This document shows, one piece after another, positions 41,926-54,513 of a stretch of DNA of 64,000 bases. Below the pieces are notes generated by a model. That model saw nothing but the letters and a program-made list of their open reading frames with translations, ran no database searches and was not told the origin of the DNA. Source of the stretch: an uncultured Chloroflexia bacterium (lineage in GTDB: Bacteria; Chloroflexota; Limnocylindria; Limnocylindrales; CSP1-4). Within the stretch, counting starts at the first letter, position 1; each line of letters opens with the position of its first letter. The DNA is taken from positions 13,064 through 77,063 of the forward strand of contig CAWFJD010000017.1 in assembly GCA_963816135.1 (NCBI GenBank), read 5' to 3'. Both the position numbers and the translations under genes were made by a program.

Positions 41926-42261
41926 TTCCGCCGTGCCGAACTAACCCGGGGCGATAGTTTCGGGCCTTCCACCGAACGTAATCGGTCCGTGGCCGGGTAT
42001 ACTACGCCTGCTCTGAATACGTCTATCATTCCGGTCGCTCAGTGGCCCCTGGCGGGGTCAAGGTCGCTTCCAAAGGCCCAGCAGGAGGCCGTCACACACC
42101 TCCGGGTCCCCGGGCGAAGATCGTAATCCGAGGTCATAAGCTCCGCCACCCCTCGACCACCCGACGCTTATCCGCGTGAGCCAGCGTGTTCTCGCGGATC
42201 CGGGCCGGCAGGCCGGGACACACACCCAGTTCCTTGCACGCAGCCCTTGAGGAGACCAGCG

Positions 42262-44110
42262 ATGTCGCAAGCACGAGACAGTTTCGTCGAAGCGAAGCTG
42301 TCGAAGATGAGCCTGGCTGAAAAGTGCGGCCAGGTCCTCACCTTCACCTGGCGCGGGGCTTACCTCACGCCATCCGGGATCGAGCAGATCACCAGTCTCC
42401 ACGCCGGCGGCCTGTGCCTCGAGCCCTACGCGCTCGAGACCTGCAAGAACCTGTACTGGGGCCGGTCGCAGGTCGATCCCAACTTCAAGAAGCCGAAGGA
42501 TTACTTCGACATCGCCCACACCTACTTCGACGATCGCAGCTTCGGCGTGAGCGTGACGCCCGAGGAGCTCACCGTCGCCCTCAACCGGCTGCAGGAAATC
42601 GCGATGAACCGGCCGTCGGGCATTCCGCTCCACGTCACGATCGACATGGAAGGCGATTTCAAGAACGACTACACCTCCGGCCACGTCGTCCAGTTCCCGC
42701 CCCCCATGGGCATGACCGCCATCGGCGACCTCGACCTCGCCTACAAGGTCGCCTTCACGCTCGGCAAGCAGATGGCCGCGATCGGCGTGACGCAGTTCTA
42801 TCACCCCGTCTGCGACGTCAACATCAACCCGCTGAACCCTGAGATCGGCGTCCGCTCCTTCGGCGACGATCCGCAGGTCTGCGCGCGATACGTCGCGGCG
42901 ACGGTCCGCGGCTATCAGGACGCGGGCATCGTCGCGACCGTCAAGCACTTCGCCGGCCGCGGCGATTCGGCGACCGACGCGCACGACACGCTGGACGTCT
43001 GCCGGGGCGACCTGAAGCGGATGAAGGAAGTCGAACTGGTCACCTTCCAGGCCGGCATCGATGCGGGCGCGAAGGCGCTCATGACGGCCCACACGATCTT
43101 CCCCGCCTACGACAAGGAATATCCGGCCACCCTGTCCACCAAGATCCTCACGGGTCTGCTCCGAGGCGAAATGGGATTCAACGGCGTCGTCGTTTCGGAC
43201 GCCATCGGCATGGCCGCCATCCTGAAGAAGTGGCCGCTGCCGCTGGCCTGCGCGATGGCCATCAAGGCCGGCGTGGACACCATCCTTCTCAAGGCGGACG
43301 ACGAGTCCCGCGCGCAGTGCTTCTTCGGCATCAAGAGCGCCGTCGAGCGCGGCGAGCTTTCCGAAGAGCGGCTCAACGGACGCCGTCCGGCGGCTCCTTC
43401 GCATGAAGTACGACCAGGGCCTGTTCGAGAAGGCCGGCAAGAATGGATCCGGCCGAGACCCGCGGCCAATGTCCAGAGCGCCGAGGTCCAGGGTTTCTCG
43501 CGGGAAGTCGCCGAGAAGGCCCTGCTCGTCGTGCGCGACGACAAGAAGCTGCTGCCGCTCAAGCAAGGACAAGAAGATCCTCGTCATCGAGCAGGTCATC
43601 CCGTACTCCTTCCTCGGCAAGGACCTGTACAGCCATCCGCACATGTTCTGCGAGCAGATGGCCAAGCACTCGATCAACCTCATCCTCGACGACACCGCCT
43701 TCTATGCCACCGACGAGGATGTGGAAGAGGCGCTGGAGCTGGCCAAGCAGGCGGATCTGGTCGTGATGACGAACTACTACGCCCGCATCGAGAAGCGCGG
43801 CAACAACCAGCACCTGGTCAGGGCGTTGAAGGAGGCCGGGCACAAGGTGGTCGTCGTGACCAACTTCCCGTACCGCCGAGGCACCACGAAGGAAGCGGAT
43901 GCGGTCGTCTGCAACTTCTCCGGCTCGCCGGACTCCATCCGGGCCGCGGCAGATCTGCTGTTCGGGGCGATCAAGGCTCACTCGACGACGAAGATGCCGA
44001 TGGACCTGAGCGCGGAAGAGAACCTCCCCGACGAGGTCGCGATGGCTGCCCCCAAGAAGCCCACGAAGAAGGCCGCCAAGGCCGGCAATCCGTGGGGAGG
44101 CAAGTGCTAG
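42262..44110 (+). pseudogene. glycoside hydrolase family 3 (beta-glucosidase/beta-hexosaminidase type), 3 or more frameshifts within 43380-43580
   Basis: ATG 42262 lies 7 nt after GAGGAG. The GH3 N-domain is present: MSLAEKCGQVL, IDMEGD, NPEIGVRSFGDDP, KHFAGRGDSATDAHD, GFNGVVVSDAIGM (nucleophile D). The C-terminal alpha/beta domain continues in ORF 43403..44110 (KKILVIEQVIP...VVVVTNFPY...). Confidence 0.85.
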
Positions 44111-44224
44111 GCTGCGCGCCTGTCGACGCGCCGTCGCCGGATCACTACTGGCGATAGAAAGGACAGCGCCTGCGGGATTCATGCCCGCAGGCGCTCCTTG
44201 ATAGACCGGGGAGCGAAAGCAAAG

Positions 44225-46773
44225 ATGCCGAAACCCGCCGCCTTCGACGTGCGTGACATCTACACCATCTCGGGGCCCAGGATCGCCGCCATCTACGAGC
44301 AGAACAAGATGGCGGTCCACTTCCAGGGCATGTCCAAGACCCTGCAGTTCCCGCAGACGGTGGCCCTGCAGGGCGCGCCCACGTGCTCGATCGGCATTTC
44401 CCCCTACGGCCTTTACAACCGCTTCAACGACGCCGGCCGGCTCATCATGCTGAACCAGAAGGCGGTTCAGTTCGGCTCCGCGCCGTTCGTCCGCATCGGC
44501 GACAAGTGCACGCTGCTGACCCAGAAGCAGCCGGCGGCGGACGAGGTCCCGGACGACATCCCGCGCGTCAAGAACTACTACCACCCCCCGATTGCGGAAC
44601 GAAATCTCTCGCTCACCATCGCCACGCCGTCCGCTGGAGATGGCCTTCAAGATCGGCAAGATCAAGATCGTCCGCCGGCTGATCTCGCCGCTGCTCTCGG
44701 GCAACGACCAGACGCTGATGCCGTTCGGCGTCGAGGAATTCGAGGTCGAGAACACCTCGGATTCGGCCAAGGAGGTCACGCTGGTCGTGCCGCGGCCGTC
44801 CCTGGTCAACCTCCAGGAGAAGGAGCTCAAGCCGACCGACCAGGACAGCGTCTACGTGTCCACGGCGGCGGTCAGCGGACAGGAGCATGAGGAGTTCTGG
44901 TCGGCGGGCGTCCGCGGCGTGGTCATGGGCAGCACGGAAACCCCCAACCGCATGGTGCTGGCGGTCCCGGTGATACCCGGCGTCGCGATTGACACGCAGC
45001 CGTATTTCTGCCTGAACCGATACACGGGCGACCTGCTGCTCAACGACGACGGGAGCTTCTACGAGAAGCGCCCCCCGATGCTGCGCAGCGATTACGGCTC
45101 CGCCGTCAGCCTGACCTTCACCGTGCCGCCGAAGGCGTCGAAGAAGATTCCCGTGGCCGTCGTGCTGGACTTCCCCGAGCAGGTCTACATCGACGGCACG
45201 ACGTTCGAGCGCAAGTACGTCAAGAATTTCGAGAACGCCGAGACGCGAGCGGTGGACATGGCCAAGCTCGCCCTGGAAAACTATCCGCAGTGGTGGGACC
45301 GGACGGTGGCGATCCAGAAGCGCATCTTCGATTCGATCACGTCCAGCGCCTCCTACCGAACGACCGAGCCGGCGCCCTGCGCCTGACCCGGCTGATCCTC
45401 AACGAACTCCATTTCCCGCTCTCCAACGCCATCGTCTGGGTCGAGGACGAAAAGGGCCATGAGCGCGCCCGGTTCCTGGAATGCTTCGACTACGCCTACA
45501 TCGATCCGTCGGACGTGGACTGGTATTCGATGGTGCTGCTGATGCTCTTCCCGAGGGTGGAAAAGGATCTGTGCCAGGGCTTCATCGATTCGATCCAGGC
45601 CGAGGATCCCACGCCGCGCTGGTACCACTTCCACGCCTCGTTCGTCGAAGCCAGGAAGCACTTCCAGGAGCATCCCGAGGAATACGAAGGCGTGTCGCTG
45701 ACCCAGATTCGCGACGCCTTCAAGACCAAGGGCAGCGTCGCCCACGACCTCGGCGCGATGCCCAAGGGCCATCCGCTGCGCAACGTGAGCGATTACGCCT
45801 GGTACAACAACAATTACTGGGTGGACCTGTTCCCGAAGCTGATGATGCGGGTCCTGCGCAACGTGAAGTTCACCGGCGACATCGAGTTCCTGAAGAAGAA
45901 CTGGGAGACGCTCAAGTTCGGCCTGGAGTCCCTGCTCAAGCTCGACTTCGACGACGACGGCATGCCCGAGGGCTATCCGGACGACGTGAAGAACACCTTC
46001 GACAACCTGGTGCTCTTCGGCGCCGACGCCTACGACGCCACGCAGTTCCTCGGCGGCTGCCAGGCCATGATCAAGATGGCGCAGATGCTCAAGGACAAGG
46101 CCGGCGAGGCGCGCATCCAGCGAGGTCTTCGACAAGGGCTGGAACAGCCTCGAGAAGCTGTGGCGCGACGAGAAGAACAAGAAGGGCGAGAAACTCCAGT
46201 ACTACATCACCTGCTTCGATCCCGAGACCGGAAAGACCAACACCGACGTCTGGACCAACCAGCTCGACGCCCTGTGGTACCTGATCTCCATCGGCGAAGA
46301 GCCGCTCATCCCCGAAGACCGCGCCAAGAAGATTCTCAAGACGATCTACCGGAACAACCGTTCCTTCATGGGCTGGGCCATGTGCAAGACCGAGAACGGC
46401 AGACGCGTGGAGTCGGACCAGGGCAAGGACGTCTATACGACCTCCAACTACGTCTTCGCCCAGTTGCTGGACTACTACGGCATGACGAAGGAGAGCAAGG
46501 AGGTCTACAAGCACATGGACCGGGTCGTCTTCGATTACGCCAATTCGATGATCACCCCGGACAACCTCCGGGCCGAATTGGAAAAGGAAGCGGGCGAGAC
46601 CAAGCCCGGCCCGCATTACATCGTCGCCGCCTATCCGCGGCCCGGGCGCCGTCTGGACGCATCTGGTCCTGAACCACGTCAAGGACCTGCAGGCGAAGAC
46701 CGAATCCAAGACCGTTGACTCGAGCAAGTTGATCCCGTTCTTCCCCGAGCTTCTGAACGGTCCGGGTAACTAG
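44225..46773 (+). pseudogene. GH116-type (GBA2-like) beta-glucosidase, 4 or more frameshifts
   Basis: The GBA2-type N-terminal beta-sandwich lies in ORFs 44198 and 44592 (FEVENTSDSAKEVTLVVPRPSLVN). The (alpha/alpha)6 catalytic part is ECFDYAYIDPSDVDWYSMVLLMLFP...SVAHDLGAMP...YAWYNNNYWVDL...DDDGMPEGYPDDVKNTFDNLVLFGADAYDATQFLGG...WTNQLDALWY. The stop is at 46771-46773. Confidence 0.75.
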
Positions 46774-46851
46774 GGCCGGCCGGCCGCCGTCCACAGCGCC
46801 GGCGGCACGCGGTTCATCGATGACCAACCCTCCAGCCAGCAATGGATTGAG

Positions 46852-47743
46852 ATGCCCAAGACATACGACATCACCTTCGTCGGGCACATGTGCTACGACG
46901 AGATCATCCCGTTCGGCGGAAAGCCGCACGTCGCTCCGGGCAGCGCCGTGCTGTGCGGCGCCATGGTCGCCGCCCGCGTCGGCAAGAAAGTCGCCGCCGT
47001 GGTGAAGATGGCCACGAAGGACGAGGACATCCTCCAGCCGATGAAGGATGTCGGCGTCGACACCTACCTCATTCCGAGCGACGAGACCACCTACTCCCGG
47101 GTGTTCCACGAGTCCGCCAACGTCGACGAACGCAAACTGACCCTCGTCAAATCCGCCGGCCTGATCTCCATCGACGACGTCCCGGCCCTCGAGACCCGCT
47201 GCGTCCACCTGGCCGGGATCTCGGACACCGAATTCGACATGGCGCTCATGAAGGGCCTGAAGGCCCGGGGCTACAGCCTGTCGGCCGACATGCAGAGCTT
47301 CGTCCGCCACGTGACGCCGGTACGCGACATCGAGTTCAGCGACGTGGCGAACAAGAAGGAAATCGCGGCCATGATGGACAAGCTCAAGCTGGACGTCGTG
47401 GAGGCCCGGATCCTGACCGGCACCGACGATCTGGAGAAGGCCGCCGTCATCGTCGAGACCTGGGGCTGCCCGGAGATCATGATCACGCACTCCCAGGCGT
47501 CCTGGCGCGGGTGAAGGGCAAGACGCTACTACGAGAAATTCTCGAACAACAGCAACGTTCGGGCCGGACCGGCCGCGGCGACACGACCTTCTCGGCGTAT
47601 CTGTCCTGGCGGCTGGACCACGAGCGCTCGAATCGCTGAAGTTCGCCGCCGCGCTGGTCTCGATCAAGATGGAAACCCCCGGCCCGTTCCAGGGAACCAT
47701 GGAAGACGTCGCCGTGCGACTGCGCGAGGCGCACGCGTCCTGA
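46852..47743 (+). pseudogene. PfkB-family carbohydrate kinase, 2 or more frameshifts near the 3' end
   Basis: YDITFVGHMCYDEI...VHLAGISDTEFD...LKLDVVEARILTG are PfkB blocks. The anion-hole block GRTGRGDTTFSAYL and the end KFAAALVSIKMETPGPF...stop at 47741-47743 are in other frames. Confidence 0.8.
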
Positions 47744-47787: not shown

Positions 47788-48685
47788 TTACGCCGATCCG
47801 CGCTGCCTGGCCGCGCCGGCGATGGCGGTGATGTGGAGCGGCGTCGTGCCGCAGCATCCGCCCACGATCGTCGCGCCGGCCTCGATCAGCTGCGCCACCC
47901 GCGACGACATGTACTCGGGCGTCTCCGCGTAGACCGTCAGGCCGTCCACGAGTTCCGGGATCCCCGCGTTCGCCTGGGCCAGGATGGGCCGGTCGGGTAC
48001 CGCGGCCCGCATCTGCCGGACGATCTCGATCATGTTGTCGATCCCGTTCCCGCAGTTCGTGCCGATGACGTCGGCGCCGGCCGCCGCCGTTTCGCGCGCG
48101 GCGACCTCCGGGCTGAGGCCCATCATCGTTCTGTAGCCGCGCCGGCCCGCGGCGAAGCTGAACGTGCACAGGATCGGCAGGCTGGTGTGCTCCCGTGGCC
48201 GCGCGGACCGCTTCGAGCGCTTCGGCGAGTGAGCTCATGGTCTCCACGCAGATCGCGTCGACGCCGCCGTCGGCGAGGGCCTCGACCTGGACCCGAAACG
48301 CCTCGTACAGCTCCGCCGGCGTGACGTCGCCACCCTCGTCGCGAAGGATCTGGCCGGTCGGACCGACGGAACCGGCGACCAGCTTGCCGCTGCCCGCCGC
48401 CTCGCGAGCGAGCACCGCCGCGGCCCGATTCAGCTCCCAGGCGCGGTCGGCCAGGCCGTGACGCGCCAGCTTGAGAGGCGAACCGCCGAACGAGTTGGTC
48501 AGAACCATGTCCGAGCCCGCGGCGAGATAGGCCTCGGCCACTCCTCGGACCACTTCGGGTCGCGACAGATTCCACGCCTCGGGGCTCGTGCCGGCGGGCA
48601 GGCCCTGCGACTGCAGGAGAGAGCCCATGGCACCGTCCGAGATCAGGATTCCGCCCGCGGAAAGGCGTTCGAGCAAGGCAGGCAT
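47788..48685 (-). pseudogene. stand-alone homocysteine S-methyltransferase domain protein, one frameshift about 48190
   Basis: ATG 48685 opens MPALLERLSAGGILISDGAMGSLLQSQGL...VLTNSFGG...DAICVETM. After the shift come ...LPILCTFSFAAG...VIGTNCGNG...IVGGCCGTTPLHI (zinc ligands). It covers the S-methyl_trans (MetH Hcy-module/MmuM/BHMT) fold only. Confidence 0.8.
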
Positions 48686-48793
48686 GGCGACCCTCAGTTT
48701 CGGCTGGACACGCGAAATGAAACAAGGACGGTCGTGTTTCACCTCTATGATCGTCCCCGGACCCCTTTAGTGTCGAGGAGGCGGACTCCGGTA

Positions 48794-49453
48794 ATGGACC
48801 AATTGTCGAGCCTGCGCGAAGCAATTCTGATAGGCGACGCAACCGCGGCCGGCAGCGCGGCGCAAATAGCCGTCGCGGCCGGCGTCCCCCCAGTTGACGT
48901 GATCGCCGACGGCATCAGCCCGGCGATGGCGGAGGTGGGCCGCCTCTTCGAAGAGGGCGAGTATTTCGTGCCCGAGCTCCTCATCGCGGCCCGGGCCACG
49001 AAGGAGGTCTTCGCCATCCTGCGGCCGCTCCTTGCCGAGACCGGGGCGAAGCCGGCCGGCCGCGTCCTCCTCGCCACCGTCGAGGGCGACCTGCACGACA
49101 TCGGCAAGAACCTCGTCGGGGCCATGCTCGAGGGCGCCGGGTTCGAGGTGACGGACCTTGGCGTTGACATCTCGGCGTCGCGCTTCGTCTCGGCCGTCAA
49201 GGAGGCTCAGCCGCAGATCGTCGGTCTGTCAGCGCTTCTCACCACGACGATGCCCGCGATGAAGACGACGCTCGAGGCTCTCGACGCCGCCGGGCTGCGA
49301 TCCGGCGTCAAGGTGATGGTCGGTGGCGCGCCGGTGACGCAGCGATACGCGGACTCGATCCGAGCCGACGGCTACGGCGAGACCGCCACGGCCGCCGTGG
49401 ACCTCGCCCGGCGGTTGATCCAGAGCCAGGACCTCGAAGCGAGCCGGGGATAG
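48794..49453 (+). CDS. corrinoid (B12-binding) protein of a methyltransferase system
   Basis: Intact 219 aa. The N-terminal cap is LREAILIGDA...GISPAMAEVGRLFEEGEYFVPELLIAA. The Rossmann domain carries VLLATVEGDLHDIGKNLVGAMLEGAGFEVTDLG (DxHxxG) and SALLTTTM...VKVMVGGAP. Confidence 0.9.
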   Translation: MDQLSSLREAILIGDATAAGSAAQIAVAAGVPPVDVIADGISPAMAEVGRLFEEGEYFVPELLIAARATKEVFAILRPLLAETGAKPAGRVLLATVEGDLHDIGKNLVGAMLEGAGFEVTDLGVDISASRFVSAVKEAQPQIVGLSALLTTTMPAMKTTLEALDAAGLRSGVKVMVGGAPVTQRYADSIRADGYGETATAAVDLARRLIQSQDLEASRG

Positions 49454-49457
49454 CGCC

Positions 49458-50494
49458 ATGCACGACGAGCACTGGAACCAGCTTCTGGCGGTCATCCGTG
49501 GCGAGGTGCTTCACCCGCTGCCGACCGGTTTCATCATCGACAGCCCCTGGCTGCCCAGATGGGCCGGGCACACGATCCTCGACTACTTCACCGACGAGCG
49601 GGTCTTTCTCGAGGACAACCTCAAGGCCATCGATACGTTTCCCGACACGATGTTCCTGCCCGGCTTCTGGTCCGAGTACGGAATGTGTACGGAGCCCTCC
49701 GCCTTCGGCTCGATCCCGGTCTGGGAGGAGAACGAGTTCCCGTTCACCAAGAAGGTCCTTCATTCGATCGCCGACGTGGACGCCCTGGAGCTGCCAAACC
49801 CCCGCAAGAACGGCTTGCTGCCCTTCGTGATCAAGCGACTCGAGCACCTCCAGCCGGAGATCGAGAAGCGCGGGCACAAGATTCGCTTCGCCGCCGCCCG
49901 AGGTCCGCTGAACATCGCCACATTCCTGATGGGCACGACGGAATTCCTGACGGCGATCAAGACCGACCCCGAAGCGATGCACCGGCTGCTGAACACGGTG
50001 ACGGACTACCTGGTCGACTGGATTGCCTACCAGCGGGAATGCTTCCCGACGATCGACGGGATCCTCCTTCTCGACGACATCGTCGGCTTCATCAGCCGCC
50101 GCGACTTCGAGATCTTCGGCCTGCCCTACCTCCGCCGGGCGTTCGACGCCGACGTTTCGGTCAAGTTCTTCCACAACGACGCGCCGTGCAAGGCGTCCGC
50201 GCCTCTCCTGGCCGACGCGGGTATCAACCTGCTCAACTTCGGCATCCAGCACTCCATCACCGACATGAGGACCTGGACGGGCGGCCGGATCGCGCTGCTC
50301 GGCAACATCCCGCCCCGCGACGTGCTCGCCGACGGCACGCCCGAGGACGTCGAGACGCGCGGTGACGGAGATGCTCGGCGTGCTCGATGACCGGTCGCGC
50401 CTCATCGTTTCGTGCGGCGGCGGCATGTCGCCCGGGACTCCCGACGGAGAACATCCGGGCGCTGATCTCCACCGTGGGGCGGCTGACCTCTTGA
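49458..50494 (+). pseudogene. uroporphyrinogen-decarboxylase-fold (MtaA/CmuA-like) methyltransferase 1, 2 frameshifts (about 50357, about 50448)
   Basis: It is continuous for 300 aa (SPWLPRWAGHTILDYF...GPLNIATFLMGTTEFLTAIKTDPE...ILLLDDIVGFISRRDFEIFGLPYLRRAF...FFHNDAPC...LLGNIPPRDVL). The end, AVTEMLGVLDDRSRLIVSCGGGMSPGTP...stop at 50492-50494, is in shifted frames. Confidence 0.8.
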
Positions 50495-51530
50495 CGAACC
50501 TGCGTGCCTTCGTGCAGTCGAGCCCGCGTCCTCTGGTGATGCCGATCGGCGCGTTCGCCGGCCTGGCACTGACCGGGGCGAGTGTTCGCGACGTCGTCTC
50601 CGACCCTCATGCGCAGGCGGCGGCAGCGCTGGCGCTCCGCGAGCGGCTCGGCACGCCGTTCTTGCTGACCGCGATGGATCTGAGCGCCGAGGCGGAAGCG
50701 TTCGGTTCTTCGGTGCGGCTCAGCGACGACGAGATGCCGGCGCTGACCGGCCGGCTCGTGACGACGGCCTCCGAGGTCGAGCGGCTGGCGGTGCCGGCGC
50801 CCGGCGATCGGCGGACGCGCGTCCATCTCGATGCCGCGGCGCTGCTGGTCGGCTCGGTCGCGGCCGCCGACTCGGTCGGCTCGGTCGACCGCGGCCGCGC
50901 CGGTCGCTCGGCGGGATGATCGGCCCGTTCTCGCTCGCGGCCCGGCTGTTCGGCGTCGCGGAGGCGCTCGAGGCGACCCTGGCCGAGCCGGCGGTGATCC
51001 TGGCCCTTCTCGAGCGGATCACGCCTTTCCTCGTCGACTACGCCCTCGAGTTCCGTCGAGTCGGCGCCGCCGGGGTCATCGTCGCCGAGCCGGCCGCGGG
51101 ACTCCTGTCGCCGGGCGGATTGAGCCGTTTCTCCACGCCGTTCGTGAAGCGGATCGTGGAGGCCGTCCAGGACCCGACGTTCGCCATCGTGCTGCACAAC
51201 TGCGGCGCGAAGCTCGTGCATCTGGACAAGATCCTGGAAGCCGGCGCCGAGATGTACCACTTCGGGGCGCCGATGGATCTGCCGGCCGCGCTCGCCCGGG
51301 TAGACGGCCGGGCGCTCATCGGCGGCAACGTGGATCCGGCCTTCATCCACGCCGGGCCGCCCGCCGCCGTTCGTGCCGAAGCGGTCCGGCTTCTCGAGCT
51401 GACTTCGGGAAATCGGAACTTCGTCCTCTCGTCGGGCTGTGACCTGGCACCGGGCACGCCGCTCGAGAACGTCGAGGCGCTCTGCGCGGCCGTAGCCTCG
51501 GACGAGCGGCCGTCGGAGCTGGCCCGGTGA
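50491..51530 (+). pseudogene. uroporphyrinogen-decarboxylase-fold (MtaA-like) methyltransferase 2, 1 or more frameshifts about 50840-50915
   Basis: A possible TTG start overlaps the upstream stop (TTGA). The N-part is PIGAFAGLALTGASVRDVVSDPHAQAAAALALRERLGTPFLLTAMDLSAEAEAFG. The C-part (ORF 50916..51530) is GPFSLAARLFG...VIVAEPAAGLLSP...VLHNCGAK...IGGNVDP...VLSSGCDLAPGTP. Confidence 0.75.
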
Positions 51531-51548
51531 CGGACCTGCGCGTCTCGA

Positions 51549-52241
51549 TTGTCCCGATCGCTGGCCGAGACTTGCGTCGATCTGGCGCTACCACGTCCTC
51601 CCGCCGACGAGATCCGCCGGCACCTCGGATACCCGGCCGGCGCCGTTGCCCCGGCTCGGATCGCCGAGCGGATCGAGGCCGTGACCGAGGTCGCCACGGC
51701 AGCCTTGCGGCCGCGAGGCGCATTCGCCATCCACGCCGTCGCCGGTCGAACCCCACATCGGCTGTACCTGGCGGGCGGCGCGACGATCAGGGGAGACGTG
51801 GCTCGGTTCGTCGGCACGGTCGACCGGATCGCCGTCGTCGTGGCGACGGCCGGGCCGGAGCTCTCCAAGCTGGCCGATGGCTATGCCGCGGAGGGCGACT
51901 CCCTCGGCGCCTGGATCGCGGACGCGGTGGGGTCATGGGCGGCGGAGGCCGCGGCGGACGCGGTCACCGAGCGAATCGGCGCTCACGCCGCGCCCGGCGA
52001 GGCGGTCACGCTCCGCTACAGCCCCGGGTACTGCGGCATGGCAATGACCCAGCAGGCCGTGTTGTTCGGTCTCGTCGATGCGGCCGCCGCCGGGATCACG
52101 CTCCTGCCGTCGATGCTGATGCAACCACTCAAGTCGGTATCCGGGATCGTCGGCATCGGCCCCACTGCCGGGCCGGGCGCTATTGCAGCCACGTCGCCGT
52201 GCGACGCCTGCGGCCGGGTCAACTGCCCCATGCGCCGCTGA
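51549..52241 (+). CDS. MetH activation-domain-like protein (B12 methyltransferase reactivation module)
   Basis: Intact 230 aa. RIAVVVATAGPEL..., GDSLGAWIADAVGSWAAEAAADAV and LRYSPGYCGM...LPSMLMQPLKSVSGIVGIG resemble the Met_synt_B12 fold. The C-terminal Cys cluster is CDACGRVNC. Confidence 0.65.
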   Translation: MSRSLAETCVDLALPRPPADEIRRHLGYPAGAVAPARIAERIEAVTEVATAALRPRGAFAIHAVAGRTPHRLYLAGGATIRGDVARFVGTVDRIAVVVATAGPELSKLADGYAAEGDSLGAWIADAVGSWAAEAAADAVTERIGAHAAPGEAVTLRYSPGYCGMAMTQQAVLFGLVDAAAAGITLLPSMLMQPLKSVSGIVGIGPTAGPGAIAATSPCDACGRVNCPMRR

Positions 52242-52433
52242 GGTCGTCCCGGCCGAGCTTCGAAGGATCTCCACTGGCATTGGCTCCCCTTGGCGTGACG
52301 GCCAAATCGGCACGAACCCATGATGAAGCGAGCCGCCGGCCATCGCACCGCGAGAAGTCGTCTCGCTCGCGAACGGCCTTGTATCGTACGTGCCGCCGGA
52401 TGCAAAGCCGCCCGGCTCAGGCACAGAGGACGC

Positions 52434-53127
52434 ATGACCACAATCGTTGTTACCGGCACAGCTCGAGGGCTGGGCTTCTGCCTCGCCGAGGAGTATCTCA
52501 GGCAGGGTGCGACCGTTTTCGGGCTCGATCGTGCCGAGCAGGTGTCGGACCTGGCCGCGACCTACGGCGGTCGTTTCCGGGCGATCCAGTGCGACATCAC
52601 CGACGAGGATCAGGTGCGACACGCCGCGGACGAAGTCGGTAGCGCCGCCGGTTTCGTCGACCTGCTGATCAACGATGCCGCGGTCTACCTCGAGAAGCCG
52701 TTCACCGAGGCGAACGAGTTCGACGCGGACCTCGCACGCCGGACATTCGAAGTCAACGCCGTCGGGCCGCTGCTCGTCACCAAGCATTTCCTGCCGCTCG
52801 TGCTGGCCGGTTCGGGCAAGAAGATCGTCAACATCTCGTCGGAGGCGGGGAGCATCTCGCAGTGCTGGCGATCGCGCGAGTACGCCTACTGCATGTCGAA
52901 GGCGGCCCTGAACATGCAGTCGGTGATCCTTCAGCACCGCGTCAAGGACGACGGCGTGAAGGTGCTCGCCATTCATCCGGGCTGGATGCGAACCGAGATG
53001 GGCGGCACCGACGCAGACATCGACCCGAGCGAGTCGGCGAGGCGGCATCGTCGAGACGATTGCCCGCAACTCCGCGATCGACGGCCCGATGTACCTGGAC
53101 TACACCGGCAAGGCCTGGGAGTGGTGA
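52434..53127 (+). pseudogene. short-chain dehydrogenase/reductase (SDR), one frameshift about 53040
   Basis: MTTIVVTGTARGLGFCLAEEYLRQGA (TGxxxGxG), LINDAAV, NISSEAGS and YCMSKAALN (YxxxK) are present. The last approximately 30 aa (GGIVETIARNSAIDGPMYLDYTGKAWEW-stop at 53125-53127) are in another frame. Confidence 0.85.
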
Positions 53128-53128
53128 C

Positions 53129-53776
53129 GTGACGGCCAAGCAGATCCTCATCTTTGGCGGGGAGGAGAACCCGTACCACGACTTCTCGGTCCAGGGCCCG
53201 CTGCTGGCGCGTCTGGCCGAGGAGGCGGGCTACGAGGCGGCGCTAACGACCAACCCAGCGGCATTCGAGCCCGCGCGGATCGCGCCTTTCGACGTTGTCG
53301 CGATCCTGGCTTCCGCCGGCAGCCTTGCGCCCGAACATGAAGAAGCGTTGCTCAACGCGGTGATCGGCAGCCCCTGGGGCGATACCGGCGCGCCGAAGGG
53401 GCTCCTGGGCATCCACGGCGCGACGGTCGTGGGGTCCGCGTCGGGGAAGTATCAGCGGATGCTCGGCGCTCGTTTCCTGGCGCACCCGCCGCTCGGGCCG
53501 TTCTCGGTGACCGTCGATGCGCCAGACCATCCGGTGATGCGCGGCGTGGGCGACTTCTCGATCTCCGACGAGCTGTATCTGATGGAAACGCTCGCCCCGT
53601 TCGACGTGCTGCTCAGCGCCGAGTTCGACGGCTTCCGGCGCCCACTCGCGTGGGTCCGCCCGTACGGCCTCGGCCGGGTCTGCTATTGCGCCCTGGGCCA
53701 CGGAACGGAGCAACTCGAGCACGAAAGCGTCCGCCGAATCCTCCGCAACGCGCTCGATTGGCTGGCTGCAAGGTAG
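53129..53776 (+). CDS. ThuA-domain protein (trehalose-utilisation-like, class I glutamine-amidotransferase fold)
   Basis: GTG 53129 lies 1 nt after the SDR stop. ILIFGGEENPYHDF, VMRGVGDFSISDELY and GLGRVCYCALGH follow the ThuA pattern. Confidence 0.75.
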   Translation: MTAKQILIFGGEENPYHDFSVQGPLLARLAEEAGYEAALTTNPAAFEPARIAPFDVVAILASAGSLAPEHEEALLNAVIGSPWGDTGAPKGLLGIHGATVVGSASGKYQRMLGARFLAHPPLGPFSVTVDAPDHPVMRGVGDFSISDELYLMETLAPFDVLLSAEFDGFRRPLAWVRPYGLGRVCYCALGHGTEQLEHESVRRILRNALDWLAAR

Positions 53777-53820: not shown

Positions 53821-54123
53821 GTGAGTGAAGGCGCACAGCGGCCACGCGTGGGCGTGCGCGAACTGCGTCAGAACCTTTCCGTCTACTTGCGTCGCGTGGA
53901 GCAGGGGGAGGCGTTCGACGTGACCGAACATGGTCGCCTGGTCGCCCGATTGGATCCGGCGCCGGCCCCTCAACTCGGCCCTCTGGATCGGTTGATCGCG
54001 GAAGGGCGCGCTCGCGCGGCGAGCCGGCCGATCGATGGCGTCGCGCCGAGGATCGAGCTCTCAGCCGGAATTGCCGGCGTCTCCGAGAGCCTTCGCCGGT
54101 CGCGCGAGGACGAGCGGTCGTGA
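53821..54123 (+). CDS. type II antitoxin, Phd/YefM family
   Basis: GTG start. VGVRELRQNLSVYLRRVEQGEAFDVTEHGRLVARLDP is the Phd/YefM N-domain. The stop overlaps the toxin start (GTGA). Confidence 0.8.
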   Translation: MSEGAQRPRVGVRELRQNLSVYLRRVEQGEAFDVTEHGRLVARLDPAPAPQLGPLDRLIAEGRARAASRPIDGVAPRIELSAGIAGVSESLRRSREDERS

Positions 54124-54513
54124 GCCCGGCCTATCTCGACTCGTCCGCCATCGTCAAACTCGTCGTCCGCGAGCCTGAAACGGACGCCCTTCAGCGGTAT
54201 CTGAGCGGTGCCGGTCCGCTCGCGACGAGCATCCTGTCGACGGTCGAAGTTGCGCGCGCCGTCGCCCGTGTGGCTCCCCGGTTGAGCGAAACGCTGGTGG
54301 CGCTGTTCGAGGCAGTGGCGATCGTCGCTCTCGACGCTCGCCTGGCGTCACGCGCGGCCGCCCTCGATCCGGCCAACCTGCGGACACTCGACGCGAATTC
54401 ACCTGGCCACTGCCCTGGAATTGGGCGACGAGCTGACCGCATTCGTCTGCTACGACGACCGGTTGTGCGCCGCCGCCCGAGACCGGGGACTGCCCGTGGT
54501 GGCGCCGCGGTAG
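54120..54513 (+). pseudogene. vapC: type II toxin VapC (PIN domain), one frameshift about 54395
   Basis: AYLDSSAIVKLVVREPE (first acidic D) and LATSILSTVEVARAV are in the starting frame. After the shift come RTLDAIHLATALELGDELTAFVCYDDRLCAAARDRGLPVVAPR-stop (54511-54513). Confidence 0.8.

Follow-up and report, generated by a model that had tools for sequence, protein, structure and literature searches.

A proposed modular corrinoid methyl-transfer locus in Chloroflexota with separate MetH-like proteins and uroporphyrinogen decarboxylase-fold candidate methyl loaders

How can a set of methionine synthase modules be charged with a methyl group if the module that binds the folate donor is not among them? 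The question is raised by a 64,000-nucleotide stretch of DNA from an uncultured Chloroflexia bacterium (contig CAWFJD010000017.1; the whole stretch is called the window hereafter). At 47788-52241, the Pfam scan and the list of open reading frames (ORFs) define a set of five genes encoding a homocysteine S-methyltransferase (HcyMT), a corrinoid protein (CP), two proteins of the uroporphyrinogen decarboxylase (URO-D) fold (UROD1 and UROD2), and a protein resembling the activation domain of MetH (Act). On the basis of domain content and gene order, we lean towards reading the locus as a modular cobalamin-dependent methyl-transfer system that would use homocysteine as its methyl sink and would be fed by a module other than the folate module of MetH. 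A wider proposal is possible but tentative: Chloroflexota, Acidobacteriota, Myxococcota, Verrucomicrobiota, and Planctomycetota of soil and peat may share a hitherto uncharacterized corrinoid hub, whose S-adenosylmethionine (SAM)-dependent activator binds a metal through four cysteines and is a relative of the MetH activation domain instead of an ATP-driven RACE enzyme, and in the present locus this hub may work as a methionine synthase drawing on an environmental methyl donor (methoxy compounds, methanol) by way of the abundant and highly conserved UROD1 family.

A preliminary description of this DNA had proposed that the homocysteine, corrinoid, and activation modules are encoded here by separate genes. 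Pfam searches and frame repair (three-frame translation with alignment to intact orthologues) bear this out. The five genes match PF02574, PF02607 with PF02310, PF01208 (twice), and PF02965, and the motifs quoted at the time (GTNCG, GGCCGTTP, GDLHDIGKN, FFHNDAPC, VLHNCG, LRYSPGYCGM, and CDACGRVNC) are all present. HcyMT (47788-48685, minus strand; 298 amino acids after repair of one frameshift near 48196) matches PF02574 in two frame pieces, with E = 1.7e-38 and 4.2e-23 over profile positions 1-169 and 182-281. Its zinc-ligand motifs are GTNCG and GGCCGTTP, of which NCG/GGCCG is kept in 48 of 49 orthologues. NCBIfam scoring was done on the orthologues of the related locus L002, whose HcyMT is 80-87% identical to that of the window. 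Here, HcyMT scores highest, at 268 bits, against the N-terminal part of the bifunctional YitJ-type model, followed by the BHMT model PRK07534, an MtgE-type module (238.7 bits against a cut-off of 338); the MetH model gives 177 bits and the MmuM model PRK09485 the lowest score, 111 bits, and all models stay below their own cut-offs. The task proposed for HcyMT is to methylate homocysteine at the expense of methyl-Co(III) CP.

The proposed methyl carrier is CP (48794-49453, plus strand; intact, 219 amino acids), which consists of a B12-binding cap (PF02607, E = 2.5e-20) and a Rossmann domain (PF02310, E = 2.7e-31) with the DxHxxG motif in the form GDLHDIGKN. In NCBIfam, its best matches are MtgC-type and TIGR02370, the methyltransferase cognate corrinoid protein, where it reaches 201 bits with a cut-off of 215. 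The MetH equivalog TIGR02082, with a cut-off of 1010.85 bits, is not reached by HcyMT (177 bits), CP (140 bits), or Act (27.7 bits).

Act (51549-52241, plus strand) is intact as well, with 230 amino acids, and matches PF02965 at E = 3e-11, the C-terminal half of the profile alone being aligned. The Act profile finds the Thermotoga maritima protein TM0269 (1J6R; E = 2.2e-11) and also MetH activation domains. The AlphaFold2 model (pLDDT 90.8) leads to the same proteins: its top 19 fold matches in the PDB are all MetH activation domains, and the best Foldseek match is again 1J6R (E = 4.9e-10, TM 0.68/0.79). The SAM motif RxxxGY (R156-Y161, in LRYSPGYCGM) is invariant in alignment A1. In addition, Act carries four conserved cysteines, namely C162 and, in the C-terminal CDACGRVNC, C218, C221, and C226. 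An exhaustive profile search returned 294 representative clusters of the Act family at E <= 1e-30 and, with the limit relaxed to 1e-10, 4208. Among 142 full-length representatives, a cysteine comes right after RxxPGY in 138, and each cysteine of the C-terminal CxxCx4C is found in all 142. TM0269, in contrast, stops short of the CxxCx4C and has a glycine after its motif tyrosine; the four near-invariant cysteines are absent from MetH and TM0269 alike. The near-invariance of these cysteines makes a metal centre (Fe-S or Zn) without counterpart in MetH probable. By its motif and fold, Act is proposed to carry out the SAM-dependent reductive re-methylation of Co(II) CP. A public protein record matches Act without a difference from V84 on, where it has a GTG start.

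The two URO-D-fold proteins are the part of the set with no counterpart in MetH. Both belong to PF01208, but at just ~23-27% identity the two proteins described earlier as paralogous are distant members of the family and not close paralogues. UROD1 (49458-50494, plus strand; PF01208 match in 49458-50390; 344 amino acids after repair) carries FFHNDAPC, i.e., H-N-D where MtaA has H-x-C, and its later cysteine is not invariant (glycine in L002). The L002 orthologue scores 68.6 bits against the MtaA/CmuA model TIGR01463 (cut-off 235.4), and in sequence UROD1 matches HemE structures slightly better than MtaA. The AlphaFold2 model of UROD1 (pLDDT 84.7) has the URO-D fold, with TM values of 0.79-0.81 to MtaA (4AY7) and 0.74-0.79 to HemE, and also matches the MetE barrel more weakly. 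UROD1 is the best-conserved component between phyla (67-78% identity, compared with 60-68% for CP, 47-53% for Act, and 44-57% for HcyMT). Its family is large: 7963 of 8000 scored candidates match, none of the best 120 matches is less than 76% identical, almost all of them have exactly 344 amino acids, and they are annotated just as 'uroporphyrinogen decarboxylase'.

UROD2 (50491-51530, plus strand; ~340 amino acids) matches PF01208 in two pieces (50362-50919 and 50916-51530). The L002 orthologue reaches 110.1 bits against TIGR01463, likewise under the cut-off, and aligns with Methanosarcina mazei MtaA (4AY7) at E = 6.8e-18. In this alignment, UROD2 keeps the His-x-Cys and distal Cys zinc-ligand positions (VLHNCG ... 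SSGCD). It is confined to Chloroflexota and one Vicinamibacteria locus. An accessory role as an S/Se-type module, i.e., a thiol, selenol, or methylthio methyltransferase, is proposed for UROD2.

UROD1 is proposed to be the donor-side methyltransferase (MT1). It is taken as the loader because every UROD1 cluster then has a full set of MT1, CP, acceptor-side methyltransferase (MT2), and activator; as a second acceptor-side enzyme, it would leave most clusters without a loader. Replacement of a thiol-type zinc ligand by a carboxylate has been reported for superfamily members that use O-methyl groups (PMC10418091), and expression of mtaB and methoxy-demethylase genes, as genes of methylotrophy, has been reported for peat Acidobacteriota (PMC10805028). 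Given these two observations, an O-methyl compound, for instance a methoxylated aromatic, is favoured and is our leading guess for the donor of UROD1. A methylated sugar, which had also been suggested, has become a weaker candidate: no sugar family recurs among the 117 immediate neighbours of 37 UROD1 clusters, where GlnS-type tRNA synthetases and ABC transporters are the leading Pfam families with five occurrences each. A role as methylated-sugar O-demethylase is not supported by this survey, and the sugar genes seen are anecdotal (GH3, GH116, and PfkB in the window; GH43 and an apiosidase in L001 and L004; GH67 in L091; GH42 in L090; UxaE in L008).

The folate module itself was searched for at several levels. 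No locus ORF matches PF00809, and neither the pterin module of Escherichia coli MetH nor the MeTr-like protein, MTHFR, and FTHFS of the acidobacterial locus L091 has a tblastn match in the 64-kb window (best E 0.6-1.5 for the latter three, 1.5 for the MeTr-like protein). An MT2 of the type that serves tetrahydrofolate (THF) or tetrahydromethanopterin (H4MPT), i.e., PF00809 or MtrH, is thus absent from the window, but present in some relatives. No PF00809, MtrH, or RACE-type gene lies within +/-8 kb in L001, L002, L004, L005, and L008, and the genes called within +/-6-8 kb in these five loci and in L090 and L091 include no RACE/RamA family. The earlier statements that the locus has no pterin module and no RACE-type activator have therefore held up, the former in the window and the latter in the annotated relatives.

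Whether the divergently transcribed HcyMT gene belongs to the system at all was the caveat raised before, and comparison across phyla has settled it. An Act-anchored scan with one genome per species gave 80 loci, all from metagenome-assembled genomes (MAGs), in which the components were mapped by tblastn seeds. The MAGs belong to Chloroflexota, with 'Candidatus Limnocylindrales' among them, to Acidobacteriota, for the most part under the label Terracidiphilus, and to Opitutaceae, Myxococcota, and Planctomycetota. Among the loci with at least 3.5 kb on both sides of Act, the trio CP, HcyMT, and UROD1 is complete in 4/4 Chloroflexota, 13/13 Acidobacteriota, and 2/2 Myxococcota, and in Planctomycetota HcyMT is found in 7/25 and CP in 18/25. 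The gene order changes between the lineages. HcyMT(-)|CP-UROD1-UROD2-Act is found in Chloroflexota, where the flanks vary too (VIT1, AadA_C, and GlnS in L002 versus GH116, PfkB, and carB in the window and L001). In Acidobacteriota, the order is HcyMT(-)|CP-UROD1-Act, to which MtaB may be added, or CP-UROD1-Act-MtaB-HcyMT; Act-CP-HcyMT-UROD1 is that of Myxococcota and one Opitutia MAG; and the UROD1-anchored Vicinamibacteria locus L090 has CP-HcyMT-UROD1-UROD2. Since HcyMT stays beside CP and Act across phyla despite the changes in order, orientation, and flanks, it is part of the system.

Other relatives exchange the modules around this core. Opitutaceae loci have the order RibD_C, 84-amino-acid membrane protein, Act-CP-HcyMT, with no URO-D gene, and those of Planctomycetota contain Act and CP, distant URO-D proteins, and sometimes HcyMT or MtaB. 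The acidobacterial loci L091 and L092 (5333-13035) read CP-UROD1-Act-FTHFS-cNMP-binding protein-MTHFR(+DUF5981)-PF00809-MtaB. Judged by its genes, this set looks like a complete corrinoid route that would take methanol, and the UROD1 donor, via THF to formate. PF00809 and MTHFR, in part with FTHFS, stand in place of HcyMT in L091/L092, L104, and L167, and L020 has a PF00809-like match as well. Both sinks are combined in L123, a 2.5-Mb metagenome contig, where HcyMT, MTHFR, a PF00809 MeTr-like protein, CP, and UROD1 lie together; Act was not detected within the 15 kb examined. In a UROD1-anchored scan of metagenomes, 29 loci have flanks of at least 3 kb on either side, and CP is present in 16 of them; among these 16, ten have HcyMT and three have MeTr with MTHFR, L123 being counted in each. 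The picture that emerges is a CP/Act core on which both ends can be exchanged: UROD1, other URO-D proteins, or MtaB serve as loaders and, as sinks, either HcyMT or PF00809/MtrH accompanied by genes for folate oxidation.

Several of these relatives have neighbours of their own. In the Opitutaceae loci L005-L007, L025, L039, L045, and L048 (e.g., L005:7218-10341), RibD_C is dihydrofolate-reductase-like, and the conserved 84-amino-acid protein is a predicted membrane protein. Within 2.3 kb of Act, the planctomycete loci L049-L088 have 12 GFO/IDH/MocA oxidoreductases, 11 further divergent URO-D genes, and seven MtrH genes; since such genomes often carry these families, their presence may be due to chance. 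A GH67 alpha-glucuronidase, GH3, LacI, and a sugar-acid dehydratase adjoin the L091 cluster. On the 3' side of CP-UROD1-UROD2-Act in L008 (9165-14609) lie a LarB/LarE/LarC-like set (AIRC, NAD-synthase-like, Ni_insertion), DUF362, and a multi-ferredoxin protein; by its predicted gene content, the set is a nickel-pincer cofactor maturation cluster.

From homology and synteny, a URO-D protein would thus replace the folate module at the loading step, and the methyl group would end on homocysteine. In the proposed cycle, UROD1, which is without the thiol-type zinc site, would load the methyl group from its donor onto Co(I) of CP. The zinc-dependent HcyMT would then transfer it from methyl-Co(III)-CP to homocysteine, giving methionine and Co(I). 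Should Co(I) be oxidized to Co(II), Act would bind SAM through RxxxGY and re-methylate the cofactor reductively, like the activation domain of MetH. UROD2 would be a lineage-specific extra, which may either draw on methylthio or methylseleno compounds as further sources of methyl groups or methylate a second thiol. The swaps on the CP/Act core of the relatives would be of the same kind, with MtaB as an added methanol loader and PF00809 or MtrH as a THF sink.

Other explanations of the same genes have to be weighed against this cycle. The operon might serve ordinary corrinoid methylotrophy or O-demethylation, feeding THF through a pterin-type methyltransferase encoded elsewhere, with HcyMT as a separate MmuM/BHMT-like neighbour of the methionine/C1 cycle. 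This would suit the relatives that have PF00809, MTHFR, and FTHFS in the cluster and no HcyMT, the MtrH beside Act in 7 planctomycete loci, the L008 four-gene operon without HcyMT, and the peat acidobacterial expression data cited above. It is unlikely, however, in view of the adjacent HcyMT in 19/19 well-flanked genomes of Chloroflexota, Acidobacteriota, and Myxococcota; in several lineages, HcyMT even lies inside a co-directional run (Act-CP-HcyMT-UROD1, CP-HcyMT-UROD1). Its lowest score is that against the MmuM model, and the pterin methyltransferase was not found in the 64-kb window. Another view, in which the locus is a folate-dependent split MetH in disguise, would make UROD1 a non-homologous replacement of the pterin module that uses 5-methyl-THF and the whole a four-protein methionine synthase. 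UROD1 is indeed the slowest-evolving part, as would be expected if it bound a universal cofactor, the cluster is self-contained in that neither a transporter nor a catabolic gene recurs next to it, and the MetE barrel, the weaker match of the UROD1 model, is a URO-D-like fold that binds methyl-folate (PMC539065). Yet UROD1 would be redundant in L091/L092, L104, L123, and L167, where it lies beside a separate PF00809 MeTr-like protein and MTHFR, and no pterin-using enzyme of the URO-D family was found; the MtaA of acetogens, at 29.7 kDa, has pterin-type rather than URO-D size (its family being judged from size). We regard this view as very unlikely. A related idea took MtoA as the model and made UROD1 a methyl-corrinoid:pterin methyltransferase of the URO-D type; it was set aside as MtoA is MtrH-like, with the size of acetogen MtaA and the separate PF00809 protein also speaking against it, and is kept as a low-probability rival. 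Salvage of methylated sulfur or selenium compounds, as proposed for type 1 mlp clusters, is decidedly unlikely too. Here, the URO-D proteins would strip methylthio or methylseleno groups, and HcyMT would recycle them into methionine, a fate proposed for such methyl groups in the mlp paper (PMC10418091). The His-Cys-Cys site of UROD2 is typical of the S/Se-methyltransferases of the superfamily (PMC10418091), but the distribution of UROD2 shows that it is not core, and the core protein UROD1 has Asp for the first Cys and a second Cys that is not invariant. In addition, no RACE activator is seen in the annotated relatives, and sulfur or selenium genes do not recur among the neighbours.

The least probable of the readings is that the cluster in the window is a decaying pseudogene array without function. 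It would explain the state of the reading frames: at least four indels affect three of the five genes, with one in HcyMT, two in UROD1, and at least one in UROD2. The UROD1 indels are single-base insertions at ~50350 and ~50447, neither of them in a homopolymer run. The frameshift of UROD2 lies within 50857-50906, inside a 27-nucleotide imperfect tandem repeat (50833-50911; 2.9 copies, 72% matches), and at this site UROD2 is expanded by ~10 residues relative to its orthologues. However, there are no in-frame stops in the cluster genes other than those created by the shifts, and identity to the intact L002 proteins is 80-90%, no lower than that of the relative L001. Many other genes of the window are fragmentary, including GH3, GH116, and PfkB, and only 29 clean ORFs remain in the 64 kb after a codon-position filter. 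The carB gene of the window is intact (1175 amino acids), and the close relative L001 has split genes as well, its carB included. As genes next to the cluster and in L001 are also broken, assembly error is the likelier cause of the indels than decay of this copy. The TTGA overlap noted earlier between the UROD1 stop and the UROD2 TTG start is real (50491-50494).

Some observations weigh against the homocysteine-directed system that we favour. UROD1 is unusually conserved between phyla for a substrate-specific loader, with 67-78% identity, and the Opitutaceae have Act-CP-HcyMT clusters without any loader gene. In 13 of the 29 well-flanked UROD1 metagenome loci, UROD1 is solo, with no corrinoid gene within 7 kb; the neighbours of these 13 genes are mixed, GFO/IDH/MocA leading with 5/70. 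HcyMT is absent near the Chloroflexi-type L008 four-gene operon and near several acidobacterial loci. Finally, with three of five genes frameshifted, the copy in the window may be inactive. The tight pairing of UROD1 with the operon is weakened by the solo loci; in the 19/19 genomes, CP, HcyMT, UROD1, and Act lie together. Among the contrary findings named in the preliminary description that can be looked for by computation (a characterized system with the same gene set, a pterin module or metH in the locus, loss of the HcyMT linkage), none was encountered.

The divergent arrangement in Chloroflexota also offers a candidate control region. The 108-nucleotide spacer between HcyMT and CP (48686-48793) contains a perfect inverted repeat, TGAAACA-N10-TGTTTCA (48718-48741), followed directly by CTCTATGATCG (48742-48752) and then by the ribosome-binding site GAGGAGG before the CP start. 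In an alignment of the spacers of nine Chloroflexi-type loci, these elements are conserved and the remainder has diverged. The palindrome occurs once in the window compared with 0.01 expected. A single sigma-70-like match was found, on the minus strand at 48776-48747. The palindrome is a candidate operator, which fits joint control of both transcription units by one regulator. Control by a SAM or cobalamin riboswitch was considered and dropped, as no riboswitch was found at Rfam gathering thresholds in the window and eight related loci.

Around the cluster, the window shows features that are observations in their own right. Upstream, at 42247-47640, the GH3, GH116, and PfkB-like kinase genes are each split across two or three frames, and the G+C content is 63-64% versus 66-72% in the remaining window. 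Directly 3' of Act lie a short-chain dehydrogenase gene and a ThuA (trehalose-utilisation-like) gene (52320-53776), which are not kept beside the cluster in other lineages. They are followed at 53821-54500, between the ThuA-like gene and carB, by a Phd/YefM-like antitoxin and PIN-domain toxin pair.

If the proposed cycle is correct, the locus would represent a new type of methionine synthase beside MetH, split MetH, MetE, split MetE, and MesA-D, and methionine supply and SAM-dependent methylation would be tied directly to non-folate donors in abundant soil and peat bacteria. UROD1, a very large and tightly conserved family now annotated just as uroporphyrinogen decarboxylase, would gain a role. 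Act would establish a second, SAM-based class of activators for stand-alone corrinoid proteins, which could account for the activity of such systems outside strict anoxia. Likewise, some of the methylotrophy marker genes in peat metagenomes may serve methionine supply and not energy metabolism.

How far does the locus resemble what is already known? MetH, including the T. maritima pair of TM0268 and the stand-alone TM0269, shares the Zn-Cys3 homocysteine module, the cap and Rossmann B12 module with DxHxxG, and the activation module with RxxxGY. TM0269 further shows the activation-domain fold as a separate polypeptide of ~200-250 amino acids and is the best sequence and fold match of Act. Unlike MetH, the locus has no PF00809, makes each module a separate protein, and adds two URO-D-fold proteins; unlike both MetH and TM0269, its activator has the four extra conserved cysteines. 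The split MetH/MtgBCDE of Rhodobacterales (Phaeobacter inhibens, Ruegeria pomeroyi; PMC5764234, PMC12478193) likewise has separate homocysteine, corrinoid, and loader proteins. In Ruegeria, a split MetH is genetically established in which one corrinoid protein is common to a non-folate donor methyltransferase and methionine synthesis (PMC12478193). In contrast to the present locus, the MtgBCDE loader is an MttB-family protein for glycine betaine, the pterin protein MtgD is essential, and reactivation relies on a RamA-like protein and DUF1638 with no PF02965; here, the loader would be of the URO-D fold, PF00809 was not found in the window, and Act is of the PF02965 type. The closest analogue of the roseobacter hub is L123, with all of the catalytic MetH modules as separate genes beside UROD1. 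In Electryoneota and other bacteria, a cluster of an MttB homologue, HcyMT, corrinoid protein, and activation protein has been hypothesized as a new methionine route (PMC9324843). As in the present locus, the three MetH-derived modules are separate genes and a non-folate methyltransferase replaces the pterin module; the loader differs, being of the MttB family and not of the URO-D fold.

The three-component systems (MtaABC for methanol; MtvABC, OdmABCD, and MtoABCD for O-demethylation; CdmBCA) share the flow from MT1 to corrinoid protein to MT2 together with an activator, and the MT1s for O-demethylation and chloromethane belong to the UroD superfamily (PMC13222342). MtaB, PF00809, or MtrH also occur as additions in relatives of the present locus. 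However, the acceptors of these systems are THF, H4MPT, or coenzyme M where homocysteine is proposed here, and their activator is an ATP-dependent RACE/RamA protein instead of a SAM-binding MetH-type module. Type 1 mlp clusters (Kountz and Balskus; PMC10418091) combine several MtaA-like proteins of the UroD superfamily with a corrinoid protein and lack a THF methyltransferase, and a link to methionine was proposed for them. Unlike the locus, they encode Ram/RACE and neither PF02965 nor PF02574, their Mlps almost always have His-Cys-Cys, which here only UROD2 does, and their hosts are obligate anaerobes, mostly Firmicutes. The core folate-independent methionine synthases MesA, MesB, and MesC (PMC7857596) take the methyl group directly from a corrinoid protein and so bypass folate, but they are MetE-like (Meth_synt_2) half-barrels of strict anaerobes that use MtrA or CoFeSP, whereas the homocysteine enzyme here is MetH-type (PF02574) with its own corrinoid protein and activator. 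The same work lists MetH, two- and three-part MetH, MetE, MesA, MesB, and MesD as methionine synthases and adds split MetE and MesC; the arrangement of this locus is missing from that list. No characterized system of this composition was found in the open-access full-text literature, subscription journals not being covered. The preliminary description had not recognized the composition either, which stands as regards characterized systems, but analogous clusters have been hypothesized (the MttB variant, PMC9324843) or demonstrated by genetics (Ruegeria, PMC12478193), which makes the locus less novel than that description had implied. While the logic of the modules is familiar, three features are not described: the homocysteine sink together with URO-D loaders, the four-cysteine activator of SAM type, and how large the UROD1 family is.

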